The notes beneath the pieces were generated by a model. It was not told where the DNA came from, searched no databases, and saw only the letters and a program-made list of their open reading frames with translations. The translations under genes and the position numbers were made by a program. A stretch of 50,246 nucleotides of DNA from a virus, in IMG/VR virus record IMGVR_UViG_3300047496_000021, positions 1 through 50,246 of that record; one strand, written 5' to 3'. Numbering within the stretch: the first letter of the stretch is position 1; every line of letters starts with the position of its first letter. Below are positions 20,151 to 44,659 of this stretch, in pieces.

Positions 20151-20471
20151 ATGGCTCGTTACATTCTGATCGACAACAACTCGGGGTACATTTTTGGCGA
20201 TACCGCCGACCTCGCCAATGGTGCGGCGCTGGAGCCCTGCGATGCCGCACTGGCGCTTGACCAAAGTATCGGGGAGCATGGCCGCGACTACGATCTGATC
20301 CGCCACAACCCGAACGACAGCCGCACCGGTTACCACGTCTATCGCGCCGATATTGATGGCCCGGACGCGGTCGCGGTAGTCCATGACGGTCAGGACCAAG
20401 ACACCATCGACGCCGTGAAGGAAAATTGCCGCTACGAGGGCTTTGTTTGGGTCCAGGACGCGGATGAATGA
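20151..20471 (+). CDS. Hypothetical protein
   Basis: 106-aa ORF with SD ggagattgagacg upstream. Confidence 0.6.
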   Translation: MARYILIDNNSGYIFGDTADLANGAALEPCDAALALDQSIGEHGRDYDLIRHNPNDSRTGYHVYRADIDGPDAVAVVHDGQDQDTIDAVKENCRYEGFVWVQDADE

Positions 20472-20480
20472 GCCGCCCCC

Positions 20481-20519
20481 GTATATACGATTACGCCATT
20501 AGGGCGAGGAGAGAACGAT
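20481..20519 (+). promoter_or_regulatory. Conserved -10/leader element, copy 2 (gtatatacgattacgccattagggcgaggagaga)
   Basis: Matches 19920-19958 apart from a few substitutions and one indel; sits directly upstream of the ATG at 20520. Confidence 0.55.
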
Positions 20520-20846
20520 ATGACCGTTGCACCACAAATGACGAGTTTTGAGCGCGAAATGTTTGAGGCGGGTCATGCTGAAACGTATCGCGGTTACACG
20601 ATCACCCCCAAACGCGATTTTGGTCGGTATGGGTATTGGTCCGCCGATCATCGGTGCAACCTAAATGCGGGCTGGGTTATAACTTATTTGGAAGGAGAAT
20701 ATCGCGGTTGTAATGCAATGCCCGGGGCGACCTTTGCATGGACGCTCGTTGAGGCGCGAGAAATGATTGACGATCTTATCTCGGCAGGCGGAGAAAAAAA
20801 CGCTCAAGCATTTTGGGATAAACGTAAAGAAAGGAGGGTTGCATAA
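20520..20846 (+). CDS. Hypothetical protein
   Basis: 108-aa ORF; its 3' half is visibly AT-richer than the genome. Confidence 0.6.
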   Translation: MTVAPQMTSFEREMFEAGHAETYRGYTITPKRDFGRYGYWSADHRCNLNAGWVITYLEGEYRGCNAMPGATFAWTLVEAREMIDDLISAGGEKNAQAFWDKRKERRVA

Positions 20847-20884
20847 CGCTTAACACCCACCCCAACCCTTAAGGAGAGACAGAG

Positions 20885-21130
20885 ATGGCCGATTCCGCAT
20901 TCAAATCTGCGCCTTTTGCGAGCTACACAACGGGAGAACTGCGCGAGCGTATTGCGCGCGGGTCTGACAAGTCCGCCCAGATGCTCGCTGAACTAGCGCG
21001 CCGTGACCGCGTCTCGGCTGGCGACCGATCTGTCATGTATCCGGGCGAGCGGCTTCGTTACGTTCAAGCCAACCCCGATGCGCCGCCGTTTTCGAGCTTG
21101 GGGATTGTTCCCATTGAACGGCGCCCCTAA
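20885..21130 (+). CDS. Hypothetical protein
   Basis: 81-aa ORF, SD aaggagagacagag. Confidence 0.6.
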   Translation: MADSAFKSAPFASYTTGELRERIARGSDKSAQMLAELARRDRVSAGDRSVMYPGERLRYVQANPDAPPFSSLGIVPIERRP

Positions 21131-21168
21131 CCCTCCCCCATTCCCGTAAACCTAGAGGAGATTGAAAT

Positions 21169-21903
21169 ATGGCAACCCTAACCGCCGACCTCGCCTTTGA
21201 CCGTTATAGCGCCTTCTATGAGCGCGACGCCTTGGTCCAATCCTCATGGCATTCCAGAGATGCCGATGGCCGCGAACTGGCCTGCGGGCTCGGCGCACTT
21301 GATCCGGAGATCAATTCGGCCGCCGATTGCCCGTCGTCGGTCATGCCTCGCTGGCTGGCGCAAATGGTCCCTTGGTTTTTCGATAACCAGCCGTTTGACG
21401 ACGCTAAGGGTTGGGGGCTGGCGTTCTACGCCGAACTAAAGCGCCTCAAGGGCGCCGTGCCTTTTTCCGTCGTTCACGACTGGCAGGCCACTATCGTCGG
21501 CCCAATGAACGTCGAGATTTGCGAGGCGCCGGGCTGGGACGCCGCGTTGCCCCTGGCCGTTCAGCGCCTCCATGAGCGTGCCCTGGCCGGGGACCTAGCC
21601 CCCCGCGACGAATGGTTCGCGGCGCTCAAGCCGTCTCTGCAACAGGCTTACAGAAAGCGATACGCCGACGCCTACGCCTACGCCAACGCCTACGCCGACG
21701 CCCACGCCAACGCCAACGCCTACGCCTACGCCGACGCCCACGCCAACGCCAACGCCTACGCCGACGCCCACGCCAACGCCTACGCCTACGCCAACGCCAA
21801 CGCCAACACCTACACCAACCCCGACACCTACAAACAGCATGTCAAGCGATTGGCGTCTGGAATGGTCGAATGCCTCAAGCGCGTTCCGACGCCAGAAGCC
21901 TAA
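21169..21903 (+). CDS. Cys-motif domain protein with a (Y/D/H/N)-Ala dipeptide array; paralogue of 34408..35265
   Basis: 244 aa, SD gaggagattgaaat. Shares LVQSSWH, ELAC.LGA and DCP...MP.WLA with the second copy. Confidence 0.75.
21661..21831 (+). repeat. Hexanucleotide coding array NACGCC x24 (perfect to 21804) plus degenerate units
   Basis: Read directly: tacgcc gacgcc tacgcc tacgcc aacgcc ... Only the first base of each unit varies. Confidence 0.9.
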
Positions 21904-21932
21904 CCCCTCGCCTAAAGAGCCGAAAGGAAAGC

Positions 21933-22139
21933 ATGATGGCCACCCACGACCTTGAGCAAGCTTGCACCGCTTTCAAACGTGCGACCATTTATCTGTTTGG
22001 ATATGTCGCGGAATGGGCCAAAATTGACACCCCGACACCTGACCAAATGGCCAATCTTCGCGGCCAGATTGCAGAAACCGAGGCCAAGAATGCGGCCTAC
22101 CTCGCGGCTTTCAAAGCGAAATATCCCGACGCCGCCTAA
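21933..22139 (+). CDS. Hypothetical small protein
   Basis: 68 aa from ATG 21933 (or 21936), SD aaaggaaag. Confidence 0.55.
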
Positions 22140-22278
22140 CCTTCACCCCGCGCGCCATCTTGGCCCGCACAACCTGCAGAACCACCCGAATGACCAAACT
22201 CACCCCCGACGAAGCCGAAGCGCCTGAGCCGACATCCGCCGAGGTCGCCAAGGCCCTCGATTGGGGAATTATATATTT

Positions 22279-22320
22279 GGGAATTATATAGTTGACTCCC
22301 TCACGGAGCCGGGGTAGATA
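22279..22320 (+). promoter_or_regulatory. Promoter cassette copy 1: gggaattatata box, TTGACT, 17 nt, TAGATA
   Basis: TTGACT at 22292-22297 and TAGATA at 22315-22320. An extra gggaattatata copy lies at 22264-22275. Confidence 0.65.
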
Positions 22321-22367
22321 TCTACTTACCGGATCGGAAACACCCGAGCGGACAAGGAGATAGAACG

Positions 22368-22559
22368 ATGAACACCGTCGAAGCTGACCAAATCATGGAA
22401 CTCGCGAAGGCGGTCAACAAGCTCCGGGACCAAATTCACAATATGTTTGGCAAGGACGGCGACCCAATCCTAATTCATGACGCCATAACCGCAGCAGATC
22501 GCATTTATGGCGACCTGAAAGACATGGGTCTCGACAATTGCTCTAACAAATATCTCTAA
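22368..22559 (+). CDS. Hypothetical protein in an AT-rich stretch
   Basis: 63-aa ORF, SD acaaggagatagaacg, downstream of promoter copy 1. Confidence 0.6.
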   Translation: MNTVEADQIMELAKAVNKLRDQIHNMFGKDGDPILIHDAITAADRIYGDLKDMGLDNCSNKYL

Positions 22560-24009: not shown

Positions 24010-24360
24010 TTATCCTGCCAGCGGCTCCGAGCCACGACCCCCGGCGCGTACACGGCGTCGGGGGTTTTTCGTTTCCCACGCCGCTTTCTCGCGTTCGGCA
24101 CTCTCGCCAGCCTCAACCTCCGCGACCAGATCCCCCAAATCATCCGCCAGCTCGCGCACGTAATCCGCCGCAAACTCTAGCCCACCGCCGGCAATGAGCG
24201 CCCGCACATGGGCCTGAATTAGCGCGAAATGCCCCTCACGTCGTGGTCGCCAATCGCTGAACGCCTCCACGACCTGGCGCGCGAGAATGTCGGCAGTCAG
24301 TGCGTCGGCGGCGTCAAGGCTGGCGTCGGCGCGGGTCCAGAGATCGTCCCACGGCGTCAT
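24010..24360 (-). CDS. Hypothetical protein
   Basis: 116 aa, ATGA-coupled to the gcrA stop; its 3' end overlaps the plus-strand terminator hairpin. Confidence 0.5.
   Translation of the reverse strand: MTPWDDLWTRADASLDAADALTADILARQVVEAFSDWRPRREGHFALIQAHVRALIAGGGLEFAADYVRELADDLGDLVAEVEAGESAEREKAAWETKNPRRRVRAGGRGSEPLAG
24037..24069 (+). terminator. Rho-independent terminator ending the first rightward block
   Basis: A 9-bp stem cccccggcg / cgtcggggg (one G-U pair), a 9-nt loop, then ttttt at 24065-24069. Confidence 0.7.
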
Positions 24361-24953
24361 GCGTAACGACGGGCCAGTTTCTCCAGATCGCGGGCTTTTC
24401 GCGGGGCTTCCGGCTTATAGGCTATCGCCGCATGGGCCACACAGTAGCTCGCGCCCTCACCTTTGACCGGCGCGCAACACGACAGCATGTCCTCACCCTC
24501 GCCAATCGGCCATGCGCATTCGCCGTAACCGCGCGTGAGGAAATGCCGGGGTTCTACAGGCCCGTCAGCCGCAACGCTCAGCTGCGGCGGCGTTGGCGCA
24601 CGTCTTGGCCCGGCCACGCGCCACGGCGTCACGGTCGCTTGCGTGGACCTCGCAACGTCGATCTCGCGCGGGCGTGAGGGTTTCACAACCACCGGCTTCG
24701 CAGATTTCATAGCATCAATCTCAACCGGACGGCGCTTGGGCTGCACACGCGGCTGACGCTGCACCTTATCCGGGTCAGTCGGCACGACACGGTGCGACAT
24801 GCCCAGCCGGTGAATCTTGCCGATCACGCCATTACGCGTGCAACCGCCTATCGCCCGCGCGATTTGGCTGCACGATAGGCCCTCGATCCATAATCGCTTC
24901 AGCTCGTCGACGCGCTCGTCAGTCCAGCCGGTCGGTGTGTCTGTGATGTTCAT
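24357..24953 (-). CDS. gcrA: GcrA-family cell-cycle regulator homologue
   Basis: Start trimmed to the ATG at 24953. N terminus WTDERVDELKRLWIEGLSCSQIARAIGGCTRNGVIGKIHRLG. C terminus CAWPIGEGEDMLSCCAPVKGEGASYCVAHAAIAYKP. Confidence 0.9.
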   Translation of the reverse strand: MNITDTPTGWTDERVDELKRLWIEGLSCSQIARAIGGCTRNGVIGKIHRLGMSHRVVPTDPDKVQRQPRVQPKRRPVEIDAMKSAKPVVVKPSRPREIDVARSTQATVTPWRVAGPRRAPTPPQLSVAADGPVEPRHFLTRGYGECAWPIGEGEDMLSCCAPVKGEGASYCVAHAAIAYKPEAPRKARDLEKLARRYA

Positions 24954-24972
24954 GGCGCCCCTCCTTGGCGGT

Positions 24973-26004
24973 TTATGCGGTGAGCAAAAGCTCCCTTTGC
25001 GACGTCTCAGCGCCAATCTGCGCGATGTTTTTCACCGCCTGCGCGTAATATGACGGCTTAAGCTCAATGCCGATTCCGCGCCGGCCCATTTCCACGGCGG
25101 CAAACACTTCGGACCCAATGCCCAAAAACGGCGTCAAAACCGTCTCACCCTTGATGCTCCAAAGATCAATGCAGCGTTCAATGACGTCCAGTTGGAGCGG
25201 GGAAATGTGAACCTCATCTTTGGCGTCGCGACCGCCGCGATATTGGAGCGTGCGCGTCTGGCGAATATCGCTCCACACGGGCGAGGCGTAGCGTTGCCAT
25301 ACCATGATTGAGAGCCATGTTTCATAGGGCCAATGATCCAACTTATCGCCGCCGTTAGCGATAACTTCGGCGTCACGGCGCTTGCAATCGGCTTCGTAGC
25401 CATCGCGGCTCACATCAAGACTTTCGTCACCAACCCATTGTGTAAGACCGCCGCTGATCGCCGTATCGTTATCGCCGGGCTTGCGGAAGGTAACGACGTA
25501 GTCAGCGAGCCCCTGCCCGCTCATGGCCGAATCCTTGACTAACTGTTTGTGCAGTAAGCGAAGCGATTTCGTGCGCTGCTGGGCGACAACCGGGTCTTTC
25601 CAGATGCAGACTTCGCTATGAAAATGCCACCCGCAATCCTGCCAAAGCTGAATGATCTCCCCGCGAAAATCCCTCATGCCGACATAGCCGTCACGCCCCT
25701 TATTGCGGGGTAATTGCATGACGTGAACACTGGCCAAGCGCCCCGGCTTGGTCACGCGAAGCATTTCCTGAATGAGAAACGCATAGTGCGAGTTGAAATC
25801 GTCGCCCTCGCTGTTGCTCATGTCGCGGTCATAGGCGGAAAATTTATAAAGCCCGCTGAACGGAGGCGAGTGAATGCTGAAATGAATAGTGTCGCTTCCA
25901 ATCCCGCGAATGACTTCGCAGCTATCACCTTGATAAATTGCATAATCGTCCGTGATCAATTGATCGACCACCTTGACGTCATCCGACACCTTCACGCGGC
26001 CCAT
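24973..26004 (-). CDS. DNA methyltransferase, beta-class N4/N6 family
   Basis: Motif IV is HSPPF near the N terminus and motif I is TPFLGIGSE near the C terminus. Confidence 0.85.
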   Translation of the reverse strand: MGRVKVSDDVKVVDQLITDDYAIYQGDSCEVIRGIGSDTIHFSIHSPPFSGLYKFSAYDRDMSNSEGDDFNSHYAFLIQEMLRVTKPGRLASVHVMQLPRNKGRDGYVGMRDFRGEIIQLWQDCGWHFHSEVCIWKDPVVAQQRTKSLRLLHKQLVKDSAMSGQGLADYVVTFRKPGDNDTAISGGLTQWVGDESLDVSRDGYEADCKRRDAEVIANGGDKLDHWPYETWLSIMVWQRYASPVWSDIRQTRTLQYRGGRDAKDEVHISPLQLDVIERCIDLWSIKGETVLTPFLGIGSEVFAAVEMGRRGIGIELKPSYYAQAVKNIAQIGAETSQRELLLTA

Positions 26005-28653: not shown

Positions 28654-28932
28654 ATGTCCCGCATGATTTTTGGAGAGACAACGGAAATCTACGGCGACGG
28701 CTACGGCTACGGCTACGGCTACGGCGACGGCCACGGCTACGGCGACGGCGACGGCGACGGCTACGGCGACGGCCACGGCTACGGCGACGGCGACGGCCAC
28801 GGCTACGGCTACGGCGACGGCTACGGCTACGGCCACGGCGACGGCCACGGCTACGGCTACGGCGACGGCTACGGCTACGGCCACGGCTACGGCGACGGCG
28901 GCGGCGGCGGCGACGGCTCAAACGTAACCTAA
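28654..28932 (+). CDS. Gly-Tyr-Asp-His dipeptide-array protein
   Basis: 92 aa made of MSRMIFGETTEI, then 38 (Y/D/H/G)-Gly units, then SNVT. The ATG is 2 nt after the upstream stop. Confidence 0.6.
   Translation: MSRMIFGETTEIYGDGYGYGYGYGDGHGYGDGDGDGYGDGHGYGDGDGHGYGYGDGYGYGHGDGHGYGYGDGYGYGHGYGDGGGGGDGSNVT
28690..28917 (+). repeat. Hexanucleotide coding array NACGGC x38 (two units are GGCGGC)
   Basis: Read directly: tacggc gacggc tacggc ... cacggc ... Confidence 0.9.
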
Positions 28933-33216: not shown

Positions 33217-33528
33217 ATGACCGAAGATGAAGTAAAGGCGCTTATCGAGCGCATGACTATTCTGGAAGAAATAGCCTTACCTGTTCGGCTAACCGCTGCG
33301 AAGTTCTCTGCCCTCTTCACCCTCGGCCGCCGTGGTTTGGCGGCTGACAAGCTGGCGGAGGCGTTGGAGAAAGCCAAGGCCGCGCTCTTGAGTGGCGACC
33401 CAGACGGGATCACGCGAGACGACGTGACCATCTATCGCCTTGATGGCGGAAAGGTCGGCGTTGCTCTCGACGCGGTTCGCCAAGCCCTCGCCGCCTACCA
33501 ATCCGATACCGGAGGGGATGCAACATGA
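33217..33528 (+). CDS. Hypothetical protein
   Basis: Start trimmed to ATG 33217 (MTEDEVKALIERM). The longer N-terminal extension from 33097 is Arg-rich and not protein-like. Confidence 0.5.
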   Translation: MTEDEVKALIERMTILEEIALPVRLTAAKFSALFTLGRRGLAADKLAEALEKAKAALLSGDPDGITRDDVTIYRLDGGKVGVALDAVRQALAAYQSDTGGDAT

Positions 33529-34415
33529 AAATCTATCTCGCCGCGCGTTACAGCCGCCACCCGGAAATGCGGATTGTCCGCGCTCACTTGGAGGGTATGG
33601 GCTATGAAGTCACAAGCCGATGGATCAATGGCGGTCACGAATGGATCAATGGCGGTCACGAATTGACCAAAGAGGGTTCAACTGAGGGCCACGAAGCGGA
33701 GCGCATACGATACGCCGAAGAGGATGTCGCCGACCTACGCGCCGCCGATATCGTAATCTCATTCACCGAAGAGCCTCGCAAGACCACTACGCGGGGCGGA
33801 CGTCATGTTGAGTTTGGGATGGCGCTCGCGCTTGGCAAGTCTGTCTATGTCGTCGGCTGGCGCGAGAACGTCTTTCACACCCTCCCAACAGTCAGGTTTT
33901 TCAAGACCACGCGCGAATGCTTGCTCGCCTTAAAAAAAAACCCGCCCGGAGGGGATGCGGTCTTGTCGGCTCCGGGGCCAGATATTCCCAAGACGATATA
34001 CAAGGCCGTTGAGCGCGTCCTTGACGAGAACAGCGCGTGGATAGCCCGGCCCAATGCAGAGGTAACAAAGCGGGTTGCCTTGGCAGCGGGAATAGCGTGG
34101 TCACTCCACACGGAAAAGGACCGGGGAGATTCCACCACCACCGAGGCGGGGGCCAGTTGGCCTACGGATGAGGACGTGGAGCGGGCGCGCGAGGTTTTGC
34201 AGGCGTCCTGTCCTGAATATGTCGAGGGCGACGTTTGCCGGGATTGTGATCTTGTTCACGGCTGCCGATCCGTCTCGCGCGCCGCCCTCATCGCCGCCGG
34301 CCCTCCCGCCACGCCTGGACAGCGTGGCGCGCCAGCGGGCGCAGCTGCAGGCCCTGCGCGCCTGACCTTTGCCGTTCCCTTTTTCTCTCAACCCAAGGAG
34401 CATGACCATGAGTGA
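33525..34415 (+). CDS. Nucleoside 2-deoxyribosyltransferase-like domain protein with an unknown C-terminal half
   Basis: MKIYLAARYSRHPEM...ADIVISFTEE...GGRHVEFGMALALGKSVYVVG. Contains a 21-bp tandem duplication and an A9 run. Confidence 0.6.
   Translation: MKIYLAARYSRHPEMRIVRAHLEGMGYEVTSRWINGGHEWINGGHELTKEGSTEGHEAERIRYAEEDVADLRAADIVISFTEEPRKTTTRGGRHVEFGMALALGKSVYVVGWRENVFHTLPTVRFFKTTRECLLALKKNPPGGDAVLSAPGPDIPKTIYKAVERVLDENSAWIARPNAEVTKRVALAAGIAWSLHTEKDRGDSTTTEAGASWPTDEDVERAREVLQASCPEYVEGDVCRDCDLVHGCRSVSRAALIAAGPPATPGQRGAPAGAAAGPARLTFAVPFFSQPKEHDHE
33621..33662 (+). repeat. Perfect 21-bp tandem duplication (tggatcaatggcggtcacgaa x2), in frame (WINGGHE x2)
   Basis: Read directly. Confidence 0.95.
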
Positions 34416-35265
34416 CGTTCTTCAGATTGATCACGATTTCGCCGCCGACCGGATCGAGACGTTCGCCCGCGAGGGGCGCTTGGTGCAGTCGAGCTGGCAC
34501 GTTCCGGCCGACGGCGGCGAAGGCCAGGAATTGGCCTGCCTGCTAGGCGCGATCCACCCGGGCATTAATGCGACGTCCGATTGCCCGGCGGCGCTTATGC
34601 CCGCGTGGCTGGCTCGCCTGACGGTGCGGCTTTTCGACGGCCTTCCGGCAGAACGCACAGTGGAATTTGGCCTCGCCTATGGCCAGCGCGTGCGGCGTTG
34701 GCGCGTGATCGATGAGGCGGGGTGGGAGCGCGCGCGGCGCGCTTTTATCACCGAAGCTATGACCGGCGCCGTCGCGCGGTGGCGCGAGAAAGGCGGAGAG
34801 GCGTCTCCTTTGTGGGCGGCGGTGACAAATCTCCATGACCGCGTCACTGCGGGCCTTCTGTCCGGCGCTCTGACGCGGCCGGCCTGGGCCAAATTGCGGT
34901 CGGAAGGCTGGGCGCTACGCGACAAGGCTTGGAACGCTTACTGGTCCGCTCGCCGGCGCGCGGCGGCGGAGGCGGTGGCGGCGGTGGTGGCGGTGGCGGA
35001 GGCGGAGGCGGTGGCGGAGGCGGAGGCGGAGGCGGCGGAGGCGGTGGCGGAGGCGGTGGCGGAGGCGGAGGCGGAGGCGGTGGAGGCGGTGGCGGCGGTG
35101 TCGGTGGCTCGCCGAGAGAGTTATGCCCGGTCGTTCGATACGCTGCTGCGCGTGCTCGACGTGGAAATCGCGGAAGAAGCGGTCGGGGTTGTCGAAAGTC
35201 GCTGTCCCGATTGTGATCCCGTAGCGCGATTTCAGTCTGAAACGGAAGGCCTAAACGATGAATAG
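34408..35265 (+). CDS. Cys-motif domain protein with an (E/V/A)-Ala array; paralogue of 21169..21903
   Basis: ATG 34408, 7 nt after aaggag. Shares LVQSSWH, ELACLLGA and DCPAALMPAWLA with the other copy. Confidence 0.7.
   Translation: MSDVLQIDHDFAADRIETFAREGRLVQSSWHVPADGGEGQELACLLGAIHPGINATSDCPAALMPAWLARLTVRLFDGLPAERTVEFGLAYGQRVRRWRVIDEAGWERARRAFITEAMTGAVARWREKGGEASPLWAAVTNLHDRVTAGLLSGALTRPAWAKLRSEGWALRDKAWNAYWSARRRAAAEAVAAVVAVAEAEAVAEAEAEAAEAVAEAVAEAEAEAVEAVAAVSVARRESYARSFDTLLRVLDVEIAEEAVGVVESRCPDCDPVARFQSETEGLNDE
34960..35106 (+). repeat. GNG-GCG coding array (mostly hexameric, some irregular units)
   Basis: gcg gag gcg gtg gcg gcg gtg ... read directly. Open in several frames on both strands. 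Confidence 0.85.
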
Positions 35266-41455: not shown

Positions 41456-44400
41456 CTAGCAATGGGTGACAATGCCGCCGACGCTGGCAAAGCTGGCGCT
41501 CGGGGTGCCAGAACAGGAAAGGCCCGTGGATGATCCGGCGATGTAGCCCGTCGCCGTCATCGCGCCCGTAATGGTTTCGGCCCCTGCGTCGGTGAGGGTA
41601 AAGGGATCGGCGGAGTTTGCACTATTGGCGATGTAAAAATTGCCATTAAGAAAGAAGAAGTACTTGTTCGGCGTCGTCGAGCCGTTGCCTGTAAATTCAA
41701 AAGCCGCGCCCACAGAGCCTGTGTTTGTCCAGTGCACCATGATATTGTTGAAGTTGCTTGTCACGGATTGGATCGAGCCAGGGGCAAGCGGAAAATAGTT
41801 CGACAGCAGCGACGTGAAGCCCGCGCCAGACACCGTGCCCGCGACAGTCAACGCTCCGCCCGTCGTCAGAGACGCGACCTGCTCATTCCCCGCGATGTCA
41901 ACGAAAAACAAGTTAGCGGAATTGGCCGCGTTAATGCCCCGGAAAAAATATCCCGTTGGGCTGGTGTCTGTGCTGCGTTGAGCAAGGAAAACATCGCCAC
42001 CGTTGCTATACATCTTGCCCACAAACCCCACGTTGGTGAGGCCCGCTGTGGGTGATCCCGTATCAAACCCAATGGCTGTACTGGTGGCAATGTAGTTTAC
42101 GGCGGTCCAATCTCCCAGCCAATCCAAAGCCGCCAAGCCTGCGCTGTTGCCGTAGTTTGTGAGATACTGAGCATAGCCCGTAGGGGACGCCGCCGGGGCC
42201 TGTTCGTAGAGGCCCACGCCGCCGTTAGCCAAACCCTTAAGGGTGATGTCTACATTGGTGACGTTGGAGACCGAAGGCATGGGGCCGCCAGAATAGGGAC
42301 CGATGATGATGCCCGCATTCGTTGGCGACAGCGCCACGGCGTTGACCGCGTGGAGGATGTCCATGCCGTAGTTCCAGTTGGACCCGTCAGGCCCGCGCGA
42401 CATAAGGATACCGAATGGCCCTTGATCGGCGGTTGTGTATCCTCCCGTCCCCTCAACCAGCACGGCGATGGACCCCGCCGCCACCGCCGAACCGTTGTAA
42501 AGGTCAAACTCCGCGCCGTTGCAGGTTCCCCTGAATCCATACGGTTCAAAGCAAATGGCGTTTATGTCCCAGATGGTGGCGGAGCTAGATGTGGCGGACG
42601 AAATCGCGCCAAAATACCCCGCAACAAGACTGTTCGTGGCGCTCGCAGGCTGAATCACTTCCGCGCTGAACAGATTGTTTGCCCCGCCCGAAGCTGACGC
42701 CGCCGCCGCTTGGGTGCCTTGAAGGACCAGCCAAGGTCCCCAGGCTTGCTCCGCGTAGTTTGTATTCATGAGCGGGAATGGATTAACCGCCGTTGTGACC
42801 CCGCTGGCCACGTTTTGAAGCGTGCCCGCATAGGTGTATTGCCCGGTCCCGCCCGCCGTCCCCGAGTTTTGCCCCGCGATGATTACTGCCGTTGACCCGC
42901 CGCCGCTTACCACCGTGCCGGCTTGAAGAGTGCCCGACGTGACGGTGGCAGTATATAGACCGGTGCTCACCGAAGTGCTCAAAGCGCCCGCTGAAACAAC
43001 AGCGGCGGTTTGCCCTCCCGAGCCCGTGAACGTCGCCGCCGGGCTGATGTCCCAATAGATCGACTTGGAGGATTGGTTGATGGCCGTCGCGAGGTTGTAT
43101 GTCCCGGCGGGAACGATGATGCGACCGCCGTTGGCGCCCAGAGCCGCGATGGCCAAGTTAAAAGCTGCCGTGCTGGACGTGGCCCCGGTGTTGTCCGCCC
43201 CGAGCGTCAGCACGTTTGGCGCGCTGTAGTTGGACGTGGAAATACCCGTGCTGAGGCTTGTGACGCCGCTGATGTTGGTGCTGATGCCAGTGGACGCGGA
43301 TGTCGATAGCGACGTGACGGTGCTGGTTGTGGCCGACAAGCCCGTGCTGATCGACGCGATTTGCGAGGTGTGCGTGCTGAGCCCAGTGGACGCGGAAGTT
43401 GAAAGTGTCACCGCGCTCGCGTTTGTGGTGGAGAGCGCGGTGGACAGAGATGTGACGCCGCCGCTCGTCGTCGAGAGGCCGGTCGAAAGCGACACCACAC
43501 CAGAGCCAACGGTGCTGATGCCGGTGCTGGTTGAAGTGGATAGAGACGCAACGGAAATGCTGACCGCGCCGATGGACGTGGAAAGGCCCGCGATCCCCGT
43601 GGACGCCGACGTGGAGACGTAGCTCACATTCGCATTGGTCGTGCCCAGTGACGTGCTGAGGGATGCGGCGGCGCTGACGCCGGTAGACAGGCCAAGCGAC
43701 GCGGATGTGGAAAGCGAGCCGACGTTGCTATTTGTCGAAGAAAGGCCAGTGGAGAGCGAGGCCGCACCGCTCTGAGCGGACGTTGAAAGCGAACCAACGC
43801 TGCTATTTGTGCTAGATAGCCCAGTCGAGAGCGACGTCTCGTTGCTGTAAGCGATGCTCAGGCCAGTGGACGCCGACGTCGATAGCGTCGTGATGCTGGC
43901 GTTCGTAGACGACAAGGCAGTGCTTAGGACAAGCGGACCCGTGCCGGTTGGGATGCCGGACAGTGCGGACGCCACGCTTGTGCCAAGGCCGGATACGCCG
44001 GTGGAGATCGGCAAGCCCGTGGCGTTGGTGAGGGTGACGCTGGCCGGTGTGCCGAACGCAAGGCCGTTCGGAAGCGACGTGGAAATTGACGGCACACCCG
44101 CGCCCGTCGTGACCAAAACGCCGTTGTTGACAGTCGCGAGGCCCGTGACGGCGGTTCCGGTTGTGGCGTAGTAGGCTAGGTCATTAGCCGTTCCCGACGT
44201 GACGGTGCCCCCGCCCCCGCCCGTGGTGCAAACGCCGCCTGCTGAAACAAGATTGCCGCTCGAATCGAACTGGACGCAGTAACCCGCCGTCAGGGCGCCG
44301 CTGATCGTGCCAAACGTCGTCGTGTTACCGGATCTTGAAAAGGCAGTCAGCCCTGTGCCGCCGTGACTGGTCGAAAGCGTTCCGGTAACACCCGTCGATA

Positions 44401-44659
44401 AGATCGCCGATACGTTGCTGTTCGTGGTGCTGAGACCCGTGGACAGAGACGACACGACAGGCGAATTGGACGCGCTGAGGTTAGTCTGAGCAAACGCGCT
44501 CGTCAGATTGACCGTGCAAGCCTTATAACTACCGCCCTGTATGCAAGGCTGGATTTCCGTTCCCGTAAGCGTTGAAGGCGCGGGGTAGTTTTGCCCCGCC
44601 GCCAATGTAGGGATTAGCGCAAGAGCGCTAGACGCAAGGAGGGCCTGAAAGCGGGTCAT
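41456..44659 (-). CDS. Tail fibre/tailspike with a Ser/Thr-repeat shaft and a pectate-lyase-like (beta-helix depolymerase) domain
   Basis: 1067 aa. SLSTGLSSTNSNVGSLSTSAS-type repeats span aa ~245-478, followed by NVLTLGADNTGATSSTAAFNLAIAALGANGGRIIVPAGTYNL. Confidence 0.8.
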   Translation of the reverse strand: MTRFQALLASSALALIPTLAAGQNYPAPSTLTGTEIQPCIQGGSYKACTVNLTSAFAQTNLSASNSPVVSSLSTGLSTTNSNVSAILSTGVTGTLSTSHGGTGLTAFSRSGNTTTFGTISGALTAGYCVQFDSSGNLVSAGGVCTTGGGGGTVTSGTANDLAYYATTGTAVTGLATVNNGVLVTTGAGVPSISTSLPNGLAFGTPASVTLTNATGLPISTGVSGLGTSVASALSGIPTGTGPLVLSTALSSTNASITTLSTSASTGLSIAYSNETSLSTGLSSTNSSVGSLSTSAQSGAASLSTGLSSTNSNVGSLSTSASLGLSTGVSAAASLSTSLGTTNANVSYVSTSASTGIAGLSTSIGAVSISVASLSTSTSTGISTVGSGVVSLSTGLSTTSGGVTSLSTALSTTNASAVTLSTSASTGLSTHTSQIASISTGLSATTSTVTSLSTSASTGISTNISGVTSLSTGISTSNYSAPNVLTLGADNTGATSSTAAFNLAIAALGANGGRIIVPAGTYNLATAINQSSKSIYWDISPAATFTGSGGQTAAVVSAGALSTSVSTGLYTATVTSGTLQAGTVVSGGGSTAVIIAGQNSGTAGGTGQYTYAGTLQNVASGVTTAVNPFPLMNTNYAEQAWGPWLVLQGTQAAAASASGGANNLFSAEVIQPASATNSLVAGYFGAISSATSSSATIWDINAICFEPYGFRGTCNGAEFDLYNGSAVAAGSIAVLVEGTGGYTTADQGPFGILMSRGPDGSNWNYGMDILHAVNAVALSPTNAGIIIGPYSGGPMPSVSNVTNVDITLKGLANGGVGLYEQAPAASPTGYAQYLTNYGNSAGLAALDWLGDWTAVNYIATSTAIGFDTGSPTAGLTNVGFVGKMYSNGGDVFLAQRSTDTSPTGYFFRGINAANSANLFFVDIAGNEQVASLTTGGALTVAGTVSGAGFTSLLSNYFPLAPGSIQSVTSNFNNIMVHWTNTGSVGAAFEFTGNGSTTPNKYFFFLNGNFYIANSANSADPFTLTDAGAETITGAMTATGYIAGSSTGLSCSGTPSASFASVGGIVTHC
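43225..43927 (-). repeat. Coding repeat region (about 22-residue Ser/Thr-rich units) of the fibre shaft
   Basis: Repeated LSTS/LSTG strings in the translation. Confidence 0.7.

Follow-up and report, generated by a model that had tools for sequence, protein, structure and literature searches.

The gene considered here occupies positions 21169..21903 (+ strand) of a 50,246-bp stretch of DNA (IMG/VR record IMGVR_UViG_3300047496_000021; hereafter the window), a single metagenome contig from a tailed phage, and its 244-aa product carries an in-frame array of the hexanucleotide NACGCC that reads as alternating (Tyr/Asp/His/Asn)-Ala dipeptides. The first-pass annotation, made from the letters of the window alone, treated this array as a peculiarity of the gene, a view that does not survive comparison with its homologues: across a large, unannotated family of phage and prophage proteins, and also on N-terminal domains unrelated to that of the family, such arrays recur as a conserved structural module rather than a one-off microsatellite. 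As the probable explanation, we propose that the array encodes the distal portion of an arm that is rich in alanine and most likely folded as an antiparallel alpha-helical hairpin, which would project from a conserved globular N-terminal domain (N-domain), return via a conserved C-terminal helix, and be resized in 6-nt steps by replication slippage or unequal recombination between units.

In the window, the start codon of the gene lies 8 nt downstream of a Shine-Dalgarno-like GAGGAG (21155..21160, +; direct reading). The N-domain of ~160 aa (21169..21648, +), delimited by alignments, the profile search and a predicted local distance difference test score (pLDDT) >90, precedes 24 perfect NACGCC units (21661..21804, +), the degenerate units N T Y T N P D T Y that border the array on its 3' side (21805..21831, +) and, in the same frame, the conserved C-terminal helix (21820..21885, +; homologue alignments, pLDDT 94-98). 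The perfect units comprise TACGCC (nine), AACGCC (eight), GACGCC (four) and CACGCC (three), so that only base 1 differs, and their translation is identical to the string that the first-pass annotation had given. Its further claims of degenerate units beyond the array and of repeated 30-nt higher-order blocks are likewise upheld: Tandem Repeats Finder (TRF) reports both a period of 6 (28.5 copies) and a period of 30 (5.5 copies, 89% matches), the latter corresponding to the block Y-D-H-N-N. A four-unit NACGCC pattern has 21 overlapping matches in the window, all within 21662-21804, where 100 dinucleotide-preserving shuffles give an expectation of 0. The array had also been taken to lie in frame within a translated gene; with the conserved N-domain and C-terminal helix flanking it in one frame, the open reading frame (ORF) 21169-21903 is shown to be a real, translated gene.

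A sequence search with the 244-aa protein recovered 243 homologues (best non-self E = 1.6e-93), all annotated as 'hypothetical', from Sphingomonas, Brevundimonas, Rhizorhapis, Hyphomicrobiaceae and many metagenomes. The search with a hidden Markov model of the N-domain that the first-pass annotation had suggested was run exhaustively with the N-domain alone, and yielded 850 clusters at 50% identity with E <= 1e-3, 526 of them with E <= 1e-10. Among GTDB genomes the family is found in Sphingomonadales, Caulobacteraceae, Rhodospirillales and Hyphomicrobiales, and the carriers of the superfamily are phages and prophages of Alphaproteobacteria. Its members share a three-part plan. The N-domain displays the invariant residues C39, C54, W27, W62, W82 and W105; the N-domain, the X-Ala array (X being the variable residue of each unit) and the C-terminal helix share one frame in 23 of 23 members inspected and then in 40 aligned members; and the helix, with the family motif KRLADGMVECLxRV, is kept in 106 of the 120 homologues listed, whatever the length of the array. 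Measured in the 106 complete members, the stretch from the N-domain core to this helix spans 23-120 aa with a unimodal distribution (median 68, interquartile range 56-76), and is composed of 39% Ala and 37% Tyr, Asp and Asn together, with Gly and Pro contributing 1.9%.

Reading 60 representative sequences of the superfamily, we found the post-domain segment to be always Ala-rich and nearly always periodic, with repeat units specific to subfamilies, namely X-A, X-S-A-A and A-A-X-A with X = H/R/D, K/E/D plus Y, or R/E/W. The array is almost absent from P0188, P0202 and P0179, and has decayed to a non-repetitive segment in P0173, P0187 and P0192. A member of the N-domain clade at L041 5860-6774 carries an (Arg/Glu/Trp/Gly)-Ser-Ala-Ala tetrapeptide array with a 12-nt unit, a type that is also seen in the superfamily representatives P0200, P0209, P0210 and P0236. 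The window itself encodes a second member at 34408..35265 (+), identified by BLASTP and by structure prediction with AlphaFold2 (AF2), which shares the N-domain, differs in its array and has a C-terminal helix (SYARSFDTLLRVL) analogous to that of the first. The paralogy of the two N-domains, first proposed from a few shared motifs, is confirmed by BLASTP (36% identity over 143 aa, E = 2e-22, the alignment including those motifs), as is the presence of a different array at the equivalent place: a GCG-GNG hexamer array coding for Ala-(Glu/Val/Ala) at 34960..35108 (+; sequence, TRF). The subfamily of this paralogue has 9 homologues.

Neither paralogue, nor the N-domain alone, has a match in Pfam, PHROGs, NCBIfam, PADLOC or PDB sequence profiles, and among 50,697 records of cultured phages there is no match at the DNA or protein level. 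The only named relatives are partial copies annotated 'SpcZ' on Streptomyces plasmids, which show 35-45% identity to residues ~56-159 of the N-domain (E down to 1e-16), followed by a segment rich in Tyr, Ala, Asp, Asn and Phe and a similar C-terminal helix; in contrast to the family, that segment is non-repetitive, and the inspected copy is without the half of the domain that holds the Cys pair. This copy, at L300 4839-5696 (Streptomyces sp. NBC_00271 plasmid), is a partial actinobacterial relative with its non-repetitive segment at the position of the array, which may represent a form of the arm that is not encoded by a microsatellite. As a clue to function the name was rejected: the inspected copy is truncated, NCBIfam has no model for it, and no paper was found.

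The frozen codons of the array provide the first line of evidence on how it evolves. We compiled a sample of 35 non-identical viral homologues that were found via the N-domain and hence are unbiased with respect to the array codons. Array Ala is GCC in 99% of 816 codons, as against 42% in the N-domains of the same genes, and array Tyr, Asp and Asn are NAC in 96-98%, as against 53-68% in the N-domains; at independent genome loci, array Ala is GCC in 332 of 334 codons. For comparison, Ala in the phage's own genes is GCG in 49% and GCC in 37% of cases, and TAT accounts for 56% of Tyr codons. Arrays are either wholly NAC, as in about 46 of 49 lineages, or wholly NAT, with no mixtures: those of L009, L288 and L294 use TATGCC and GATGCC throughout in place of NACGCC (with TCTGCC in addition in L294). 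The three NAT lineages are not each other's closest relatives; therefore, a synonymous change must have swept whole arrays, Tyr and Asp units alike, at least three times, a pattern that we interpret as concerted evolution.

The identity of the frozen Ala codon appears to have a second cause. In single-strand folding, native arrays give -0.13 kcal/mol/nt, recodings with the genes' own usage -0.38 and all-GCG versions -0.82, the last being strongly structured owing to the CGCG palindromes that arise from NACGCG; for 32 of 33 arrays, all 60 synonymous recodings were more structured than the native sequence. Arrays with GCA or GCT would be unstructured too, but these are rare codons. Concerted evolution, together with avoidance of the self-complementary GCG unit, thus largely accounts for the frozen Ala codon. 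Such avoidance holds for X-Ala arrays, the array of the paralogue, the X-S-A-A array of L041 and the array of a protein of a different family, DUF6745, in L020.

The variable position tells of selection on the protein. Across 118 members X is Tyr in 41%, Asp in 28% and Asn in 23% of units (92% together), while His makes up only 1.2% although its codon CAC is equally accessible, which shows that residue X is under selection in the coding frame. Constraint in another frame or in the DNA itself, be it through a (Gly-Val)n ORF on the antisense strand, a frame that reads (Thr-Pro)n or a site of DNA binding or recombination, is by comparison very improbable. It might be entertained in that the variable base is the third codon position in both antisense GGC GTN and sense ACG CCN, both frames being open, and in that the identical DNA pattern is read as (Thr-Pro)n in 69 of the other viral arrays listed. 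Yet it is in the coding frame that the N-domain and the C-terminal helix are conserved on either side of the arrays, and the frequencies at base 1 (T 41%, G 28%, A 23%, C 1%) would amount to GTA > GTC > GTT >> GTG, the reverse of the phage's Val usage (GTG 38%, GTC 38%, GTT 19%, GTA 4%). Moreover, a period of 6 bp does not keep step with the turn of the DNA helix, and the pattern occurs nowhere else in the window. The antisense Gly-Val and sense Thr-Pro readings were rejected on the strength of the flank conservation and the reversed Val usage.

The second line of evidence is the variation in length. We compared the 142-aa N-domain core with the inter-domain segment in ten clusters at >=90% identity. 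In eight of the ten, N-domain cores that are 93-100% identical (cluster means 95-100%) are joined to segments of differing length, by up to ~3-fold, with ranges of 61-85, 32-101, 61-109, 38-107, 29-81, 36-65, 48-62 and 86-92 aa. Apart from two exceptions that we take up below, close alleles differ by insertions or deletions of dipeptide blocks in multiples of 2 aa (6 nt). Inside arrays, certain rare variant units reappear at even intervals (ADTY in L020, ANVD in L011, YACADAY in L039), which shows duplication of multi-unit blocks. A telling pair is that of the Sphingobium-type prophages L025 and L283, which are ~92-94% identical overall: 1072 mismatch-free nt directly abut the array and 5 mismatches fall in 483 nt downstream of it, while the arrays have 64 and 33 units, respectively, and also differ in the internal order of their units. 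As a separate observation on this pair, a tract of ~1.9 kb (L025 4545-6460) over the N-domain and the genes upstream has 6 mismatches against L283, the rest being ~6-8% diverged, which suggests a recent recombination block that includes the homologue gene. The prediction of a length-variable protein segment whose frame is kept by the six-base period is therefore borne out at the family level by the eight clusters and this pair. The same cannot be said of the label 'contingency-type' in the sense of on/off switching, given indels that, with the same two exceptions, are multiples of 6 nt: as the 6-nt unit keeps the frame, the gene cannot be switched on or off and only the length of the protein changes. 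The changes in length may be adaptive or merely tolerated.

A dedicated mutator acting on base 1, for example a diversity-generating retroelement (DGR), is a further conceivable source of variation, to which we give almost no credence. Each unit has a single variable base, and the set Asn, Tyr, Asp and His overlaps the residues typical of DGR variable regions; furthermore, the NAT arrays have the new third base in Tyr and Asp units alike, which implies that base 1 turned over after the sweep. A mutator of this kind is nevertheless hard to reconcile with close alleles that differ by block indels and not by substitutions at base 1, with the invariant adenine at unit position 2, which is unlike DGR mutagenesis, or with the near absence of His, which it does not explain. 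There is also no template-repeat copy of the array in the 50-kb window, no reverse transcriptase among the 20 window ORFs scanned and no neighbour conserved across 42 loci. A DGR-type mechanism was accordingly rejected on account of the missing template repeat, the invariant second adenine and the block indels between close alleles.

The third line of evidence comes from structure prediction, likewise suggested in the first-pass annotation: AF2 models of both paralogues place the array in a projecting antiparallel helical hairpin. Modelled with the family alignment (mean pLDDT 86, predicted template modelling score 0.84), the 244-aa protein has an all-alpha N-domain with a small beta hairpin (pLDDT >90), and the array forms the distal section of a helical hairpin, with helices H169-189 and H204-213 around a low-confidence turn. 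The C-terminal helix reaches pLDDT 94-98, and is therefore presumably packed back on the N-domain. In the model of the paralogue (pLDDT 78), a long antiparallel hairpin (H157-200, turn 201-205, H206-265) has its turn inside the array, and its descending helix runs on into the conserved C-terminal helix. Foldseek found no significant fold neighbour in PDB (best E = 0.2-0.6), HlyD and BAR domains being among the non-significant matches only; its sole match is one uncharacterised phage protein in BFVD (E = 6.5e-5). On these models, we somewhat favour the array being the distal part of an Ala-rich antiparallel helical hairpin arm.

Put together, these lines of evidence suggest a mechanism in which gain or loss of units would resize the arm without disturbing its fold, since the sequence is periodic with Ala at every second residue, and in which the length of the arm would evolve far faster than its flanks because slippage or unequal recombination proceeds in 6-nt steps. 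The same turnover of units would also homogenise the synonymous sites. In this mechanism, Ala would be kept as GCC because GCG, the only other common Ala codon, makes the repeat strongly self-complementary, and diversity at base 1 would be maintained by the protein's need for a mixture of Tyr, Asp and Asn at an exposed position.

Several observations weigh against this proposal in one or another of its parts. As regards structure, the Tyr/Asp/Asn-Ala array is modelled with a pLDDT of only 50-75, and Tyr residues do not follow one another along the arrays with any helical (heptad or 4-residue) period. AF2 is, besides, prone to predict helices in low-complexity sequence rich in Ala, and Tyr, Asp and Asn form helices poorly. 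The low pLDDT would also suit an array that is beta-rich or disordered and that self-assembles in a prion-like or sticker-and-spacer manner into condensates, fibres or gels, with repeat number setting valency; a (Tyr/Asp/His)-Gly ORF elsewhere in the window would then belong to the same phenomenon. Perfect alternation would indeed make an amphipathic beta strand, a composition of Tyr, Asn and Asp with a small residue resembles that of prion-like and FUS-type low-complexity domains, small phage ORFs commonly contain X-Gly arrays that draw on the same set of X residues, and runs of Tyr along the arrays are never longer than 5. We nonetheless hold self-assembly to be improbable, inasmuch as sister subfamilies have clearly helix-forming arrays (E/V/A-Ala, X-S-A-A) at the same site and the C-terminal helix, confidently modelled with the domain, would imply a closed hairpin.

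As regards length, two clusters (3 and 9) are invariant, and the three metagenome contigs L021-L023 have identical genes. The step of 2 aa is broken by P0142, in which a duplication also took in part of the C-terminal helix (…AVKRLAD-array-AVKRLADGMVECL), and by P0157, with a difference of one residue. Further, most of the data on length variation derive from metagenomes assembled from short reads, where repeats are open to assembly error; several homologues stop inside the array at contig ends (P0159, P0166), and no second copy of the window phage was found in metagenome and viral contigs, the exact protein not being retrievable. The array, or its length, might be suspected of being a product of mis-assembly in what is itself a metagenome contig. 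The array of P0171 could be cited to the same effect, as it is read in shifted frames (…RRRRATPTPTPRRQRLRL…), the one frameshifted array among the 60 superfamily representatives read, and reflects either a genuine frameshift allele or a mistake of sequencing or assembly in the repeat. An artefact is nevertheless exceedingly improbable: isolate genomes of Sphingomonas, Sphingobium, Novosphingobium and Rhizorhapis have arrays of 14-38 units at the same position, so the feature itself, as distinct from the exact copy number in the window, is not artefactual, and the frame and the C-terminal helix are preserved in the 106 of 120 homologues mentioned above.

As regards codon choice, avoidance of self-complementarity was rejected as a universal rule, because it fails for L042, for the DUF6745 array of L023 and for an X-Gly array of the window at 28690-28917, in which 68 of 100 recodings are as unstructured as the native sequence. 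Nor does it account for the preference of NAC over NAT, the all-NAT array of L009 being equally unstructured. That preference gives an opening to yet another explanation, by which the run of NAC codons is a translational sensor that ties expression to queuosine (Q) modification or to tRNA integrity, for instance against anticodon nucleases: NAC codons (Tyr/His/Asn/Asp) are the four boxes read by queuosine-34 tRNAs, and the arrays are almost all wholly NAC, though in the neighbouring domain 32-47% of the same codons are NAT. We find this scarcely credible, as the NAC set simply results from variation at base 1, the arrays of sister subfamilies are built from wholly different codons, all-NAT arrays have arisen on three occasions, and the window ORFs scanned, in a scan that was not exhaustive, include no queuosine-related genes.

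Finally, none of the homologues found has a known function, and no conserved gene neighbour emerged across the 42 viral loci. This lack of a function or a conserved partner is among the points that favour the most serious rival, a neutral runaway microsatellite at a permissive hairpin tip or linker, which would have no arm function and would persist by mutation-drift balance. The breadth of arm lengths (23-120 aa), the near-absent or decayed arrays of some superfamily members and an X set that differs wholly between subfamilies (Y/D/N, E/V/A/W, R/E/W/G, H/R/D) can all be read in this way. We consider neutrality unlikely, although by no means negligible, in view of the bias at X (His 1.2% against Tyr 41%), by which the translated residue is under selection, the persistence of pure arrays in nearly all lineages over 40-60% N-domain divergence, the unimodal distribution of lengths and the recurrence of the array-plus-helix module on unrelated N-domains.

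To trace this recurrence we scanned viral contigs for eight consecutive units of NACGCC or NACGGC, and found at least 119 loci for each. Among the 131 NACGCC arrays listed, 69 make best sense with the frame moved one base downstream, where they encode ordinary (Thr-Pro)n linkers of large structural proteins, and 39 are X-Ala arrays, of which 30 are attached to the N-domain of the 21169-21903 family. Other phage proteins bear the same (Tyr/Asp/Asn-Ala)n array: type B (L053, L092, L148), type C (L054, L118, L154), type D (L059, L090, L142), type F with the array near the N-terminus (L071, L088) and a further protein in L145. Types B-D are organised as an N-domain (C-x-M...D-x-P-x-C...LND), a helical part, the array and a C-terminal helix. 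In hhalign, on small alignments, they match each other at 74-97% and the 21169-21903 family at <1%, for which reason kinship of the LAC..LG...DCP...W-LA motif of the family with the motif of types B-D was rejected. The Pfam search of these other array-bearing types gave no match, and their PHROG matches were to uninformative families only.

The design also extends beyond X-Ala. In related phage contigs, DUF6745 (PF20530) proteins have in-ORF arrays of period 12 with frozen synonymous sites and one or two hypervariable non-synonymous positions, namely (SAV[G/D/Y/R])n, (QL[W/R/G][D/G])n and (SQL[W/G/E/R])n (L020 201-1766, L023 457-1929 and L041 11238-12431). (Tyr/Asp/Asn/Ser)-Gly arrays occur in many small phage ORFs (L164, L165, L172, L178, L185, L195) and also N-terminal to a ~170-aa domain (L179, L196). 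The window has its own instance in a candidate ORF of 92 aa (28654..28932, +), almost wholly (Tyr/Asp/His)-Gly, which is akin to the gene at 21169..21903 by repeat design and not by homology; its NAC-GGC array of 38 units, with base 1 alone variable (28690..28917, +; sequence, TRF), had not been linked to the first array before. The ATG of this ORF, for which the frame is a candidate only, sits 1 nt past the stop codon of the upstream gene. The recurrence of the module on unrelated domains, along with the DUF6745 and X-Gly analogues, suggests a general phenomenon in these phages. It is conceivable, though we would call it a long shot, that the Tyr/Asp/Asn-Ala and -Gly arrays are a general, modular and resizable interaction element of phage accessory proteins that has been grafted onto unrelated domains, with slippage supplying variation for conflict as a functional counterpart of DGR variable regions and with the DNA unit fixed by selection for a mutable, non-self-complementary tract.

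The genomic setting gives some pointers to the role of the protein. The window encodes a tail sheath, tape-measure protein, major head protein, prohead protease, portal, large terminase and two helicases, in addition to a GcrA-like regulator, an N6/N4 DNA methylase and a YqaJ recombinase, the last three of which indicate an alphaproteobacterial host. The gene for the GcrA-like cell-cycle regulator overlaps the start of the methylase gene (24357-26004, -), and this pairing, which resembles the alphaproteobacterial cell-cycle regulator pair GcrA/CcrM, likewise seems to indicate the host clade. The gene at 21169-21903 belongs to a short + strand block of small unannotated ORFs (20151-22559) flanked by helicase/replication genes on the opposite strand, and the helicase, GcrA-like, methylase and YqaJ genes adjoin this neighbourhood; a scan for promoters and terminators around the gene gave nothing convincing. 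In three prophages, the homologue lies within a co-directional block with an S24/HTH (helix-turn-helix) repressor at its start and an integrase or recombinase at its end, and in two of the three it is followed by DUF4326 and a methylase or HTH gene. A setting among small ORFs, or between repressor and integrase, is typical of accessory, host-takeover or exclusion genes but proves nothing. On direct reading of its sequence, the 244-aa protein has neither a signal peptide nor a hydrophobic segment. We tentatively picture a cytoplasmic accessory protein of temperate or early phage modules, in which the N-domain would be the working part, clamped by the C-terminal helix, and the arm, tunable in length, would serve as a spacer or a surface for interactions in conflict between phage and host or between phages; as a specific role this remains rather doubtful. 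Elsewhere in the window, an ORF of 1067 aa in the structural region (41456-44659, -) has no PHROG match at E <= 1e-5. Immediately 5' of the paralogue at 34408-35265, and overlapping it, lies a nucleoside 2-deoxyribosyltransferase-like ORF (33525-34415) that contains a 21-nt tandem duplication of 2.4 copies (33620-33670) encoding WINGGHE-WINGGHE.

Several known systems offer partial parallels. The staphylococcal ClfA/Sdr proteins have stalks of Ser-Asp dipeptide repeats (the SD-repeat or 'R region'), and these are similar in being long dipeptide repeats that arise from a short in-frame DNA repeat, vary in length between strains and serve as a spacer beside a conserved functional domain. Those stalks, however, are secreted, cell-wall-anchored and extended or glycosylated, with an 18-bp unit and synonymous variation, whereas the arm described here is phage-encoded and cytoplasmic, with a 6-bp unit and frozen synonymous sites, and is predicted to be a helical hairpin that returns to its own domain. 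Bacterial simple-sequence contingency loci share the hypermutable in-gene tandem repeat, in which slippage quickly yields heritable variants, but switch expression by frameshift or promoter spacing, where a 6-nt unit alters protein length alone. In the needle-length protein YscP and in phage tape-measure rulers, a helical repeat segment that is resized by duplication or deletion of units likewise sets a physical distance. Rulers, though, span two sites; the modelled arm has both ends at the same domain, and therefore would act as a projecting finger or as the spacer of a domain-swapped dimer.

Closer in shape are the arm of seryl-tRNA synthetase, the fingers of GreA and DksA, the hairpin of HlyD and the 'Alacoil', which are two-helix antiparallel arms from a globular domain with small residues for tight packing; they differ in being of fixed length and non-repetitive, and the protein has no significant fold match. 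The variable proteins of phage DGRs resemble it in having a fast-diversifying segment rich in Asn, Tyr and Asp, but the variation here is in the number of units and not in adenine-directed substitution, and the window has no template repeat and, among the ORFs scanned, no reverse transcriptase. The (Thr-Pro)n linkers of phage and giant-virus structural proteins have the identical DNA pattern, (ACGCCN)n; being read as ACG CCN, with the variable base synonymous, they are proline-rich extended linkers. DUF6745 and types B-D come from the same kinds of phages and share arrays that are encoded by microsatellites and in which one non-synonymous position is hypervariable while the synonymous sites are frozen, types B-D having the very same array and trailing helix, yet their flanking domains are unrelated to that of the family. 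Pentapeptide-repeat and DNA-mimic proteins, by contrast, have a five-residue repeat that forms a quadrilateral beta helix, while the period here is 2 residues, and there is no match to the Pfam pentapeptide-repeat models.

In kind, then, the array appears to be a known entity, an in-frame variable number tandem repeat that encodes a protein segment of variable length, with copy number differing at the level of the family. Searches of the literature on DUF6745, SpcZ, the array peptide motifs and phage hexanucleotide coding repeats returned nothing, and within that literature several features seem to be new: a dipeptide unit with one selected variable base, a DNA unit fixed across the family, a predicted helical hairpin arm on an orphan domain and the use of this module on unrelated phage proteins. 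Were the arrays merely tolerated expansions, the result would be a useful annotation and a caution for assembly, and biologically ordinary. If instead the proposed explanation is correct, there is a large unannotated family (at least 850 clusters at 50% identity) in which a conserved domain bears an arm that owes its length to a microsatellite and is resized within very short spans of evolutionary time. This would give a means of annotating hundreds of genes now labelled 'hypothetical' in phages of Sphingomonadales, Caulobacterales and related Alphaproteobacteria, a case study of codon choice in coding repeats under concerted evolution and avoidance of self-complementarity, and a natural allelic series for probing the effects of arm length.

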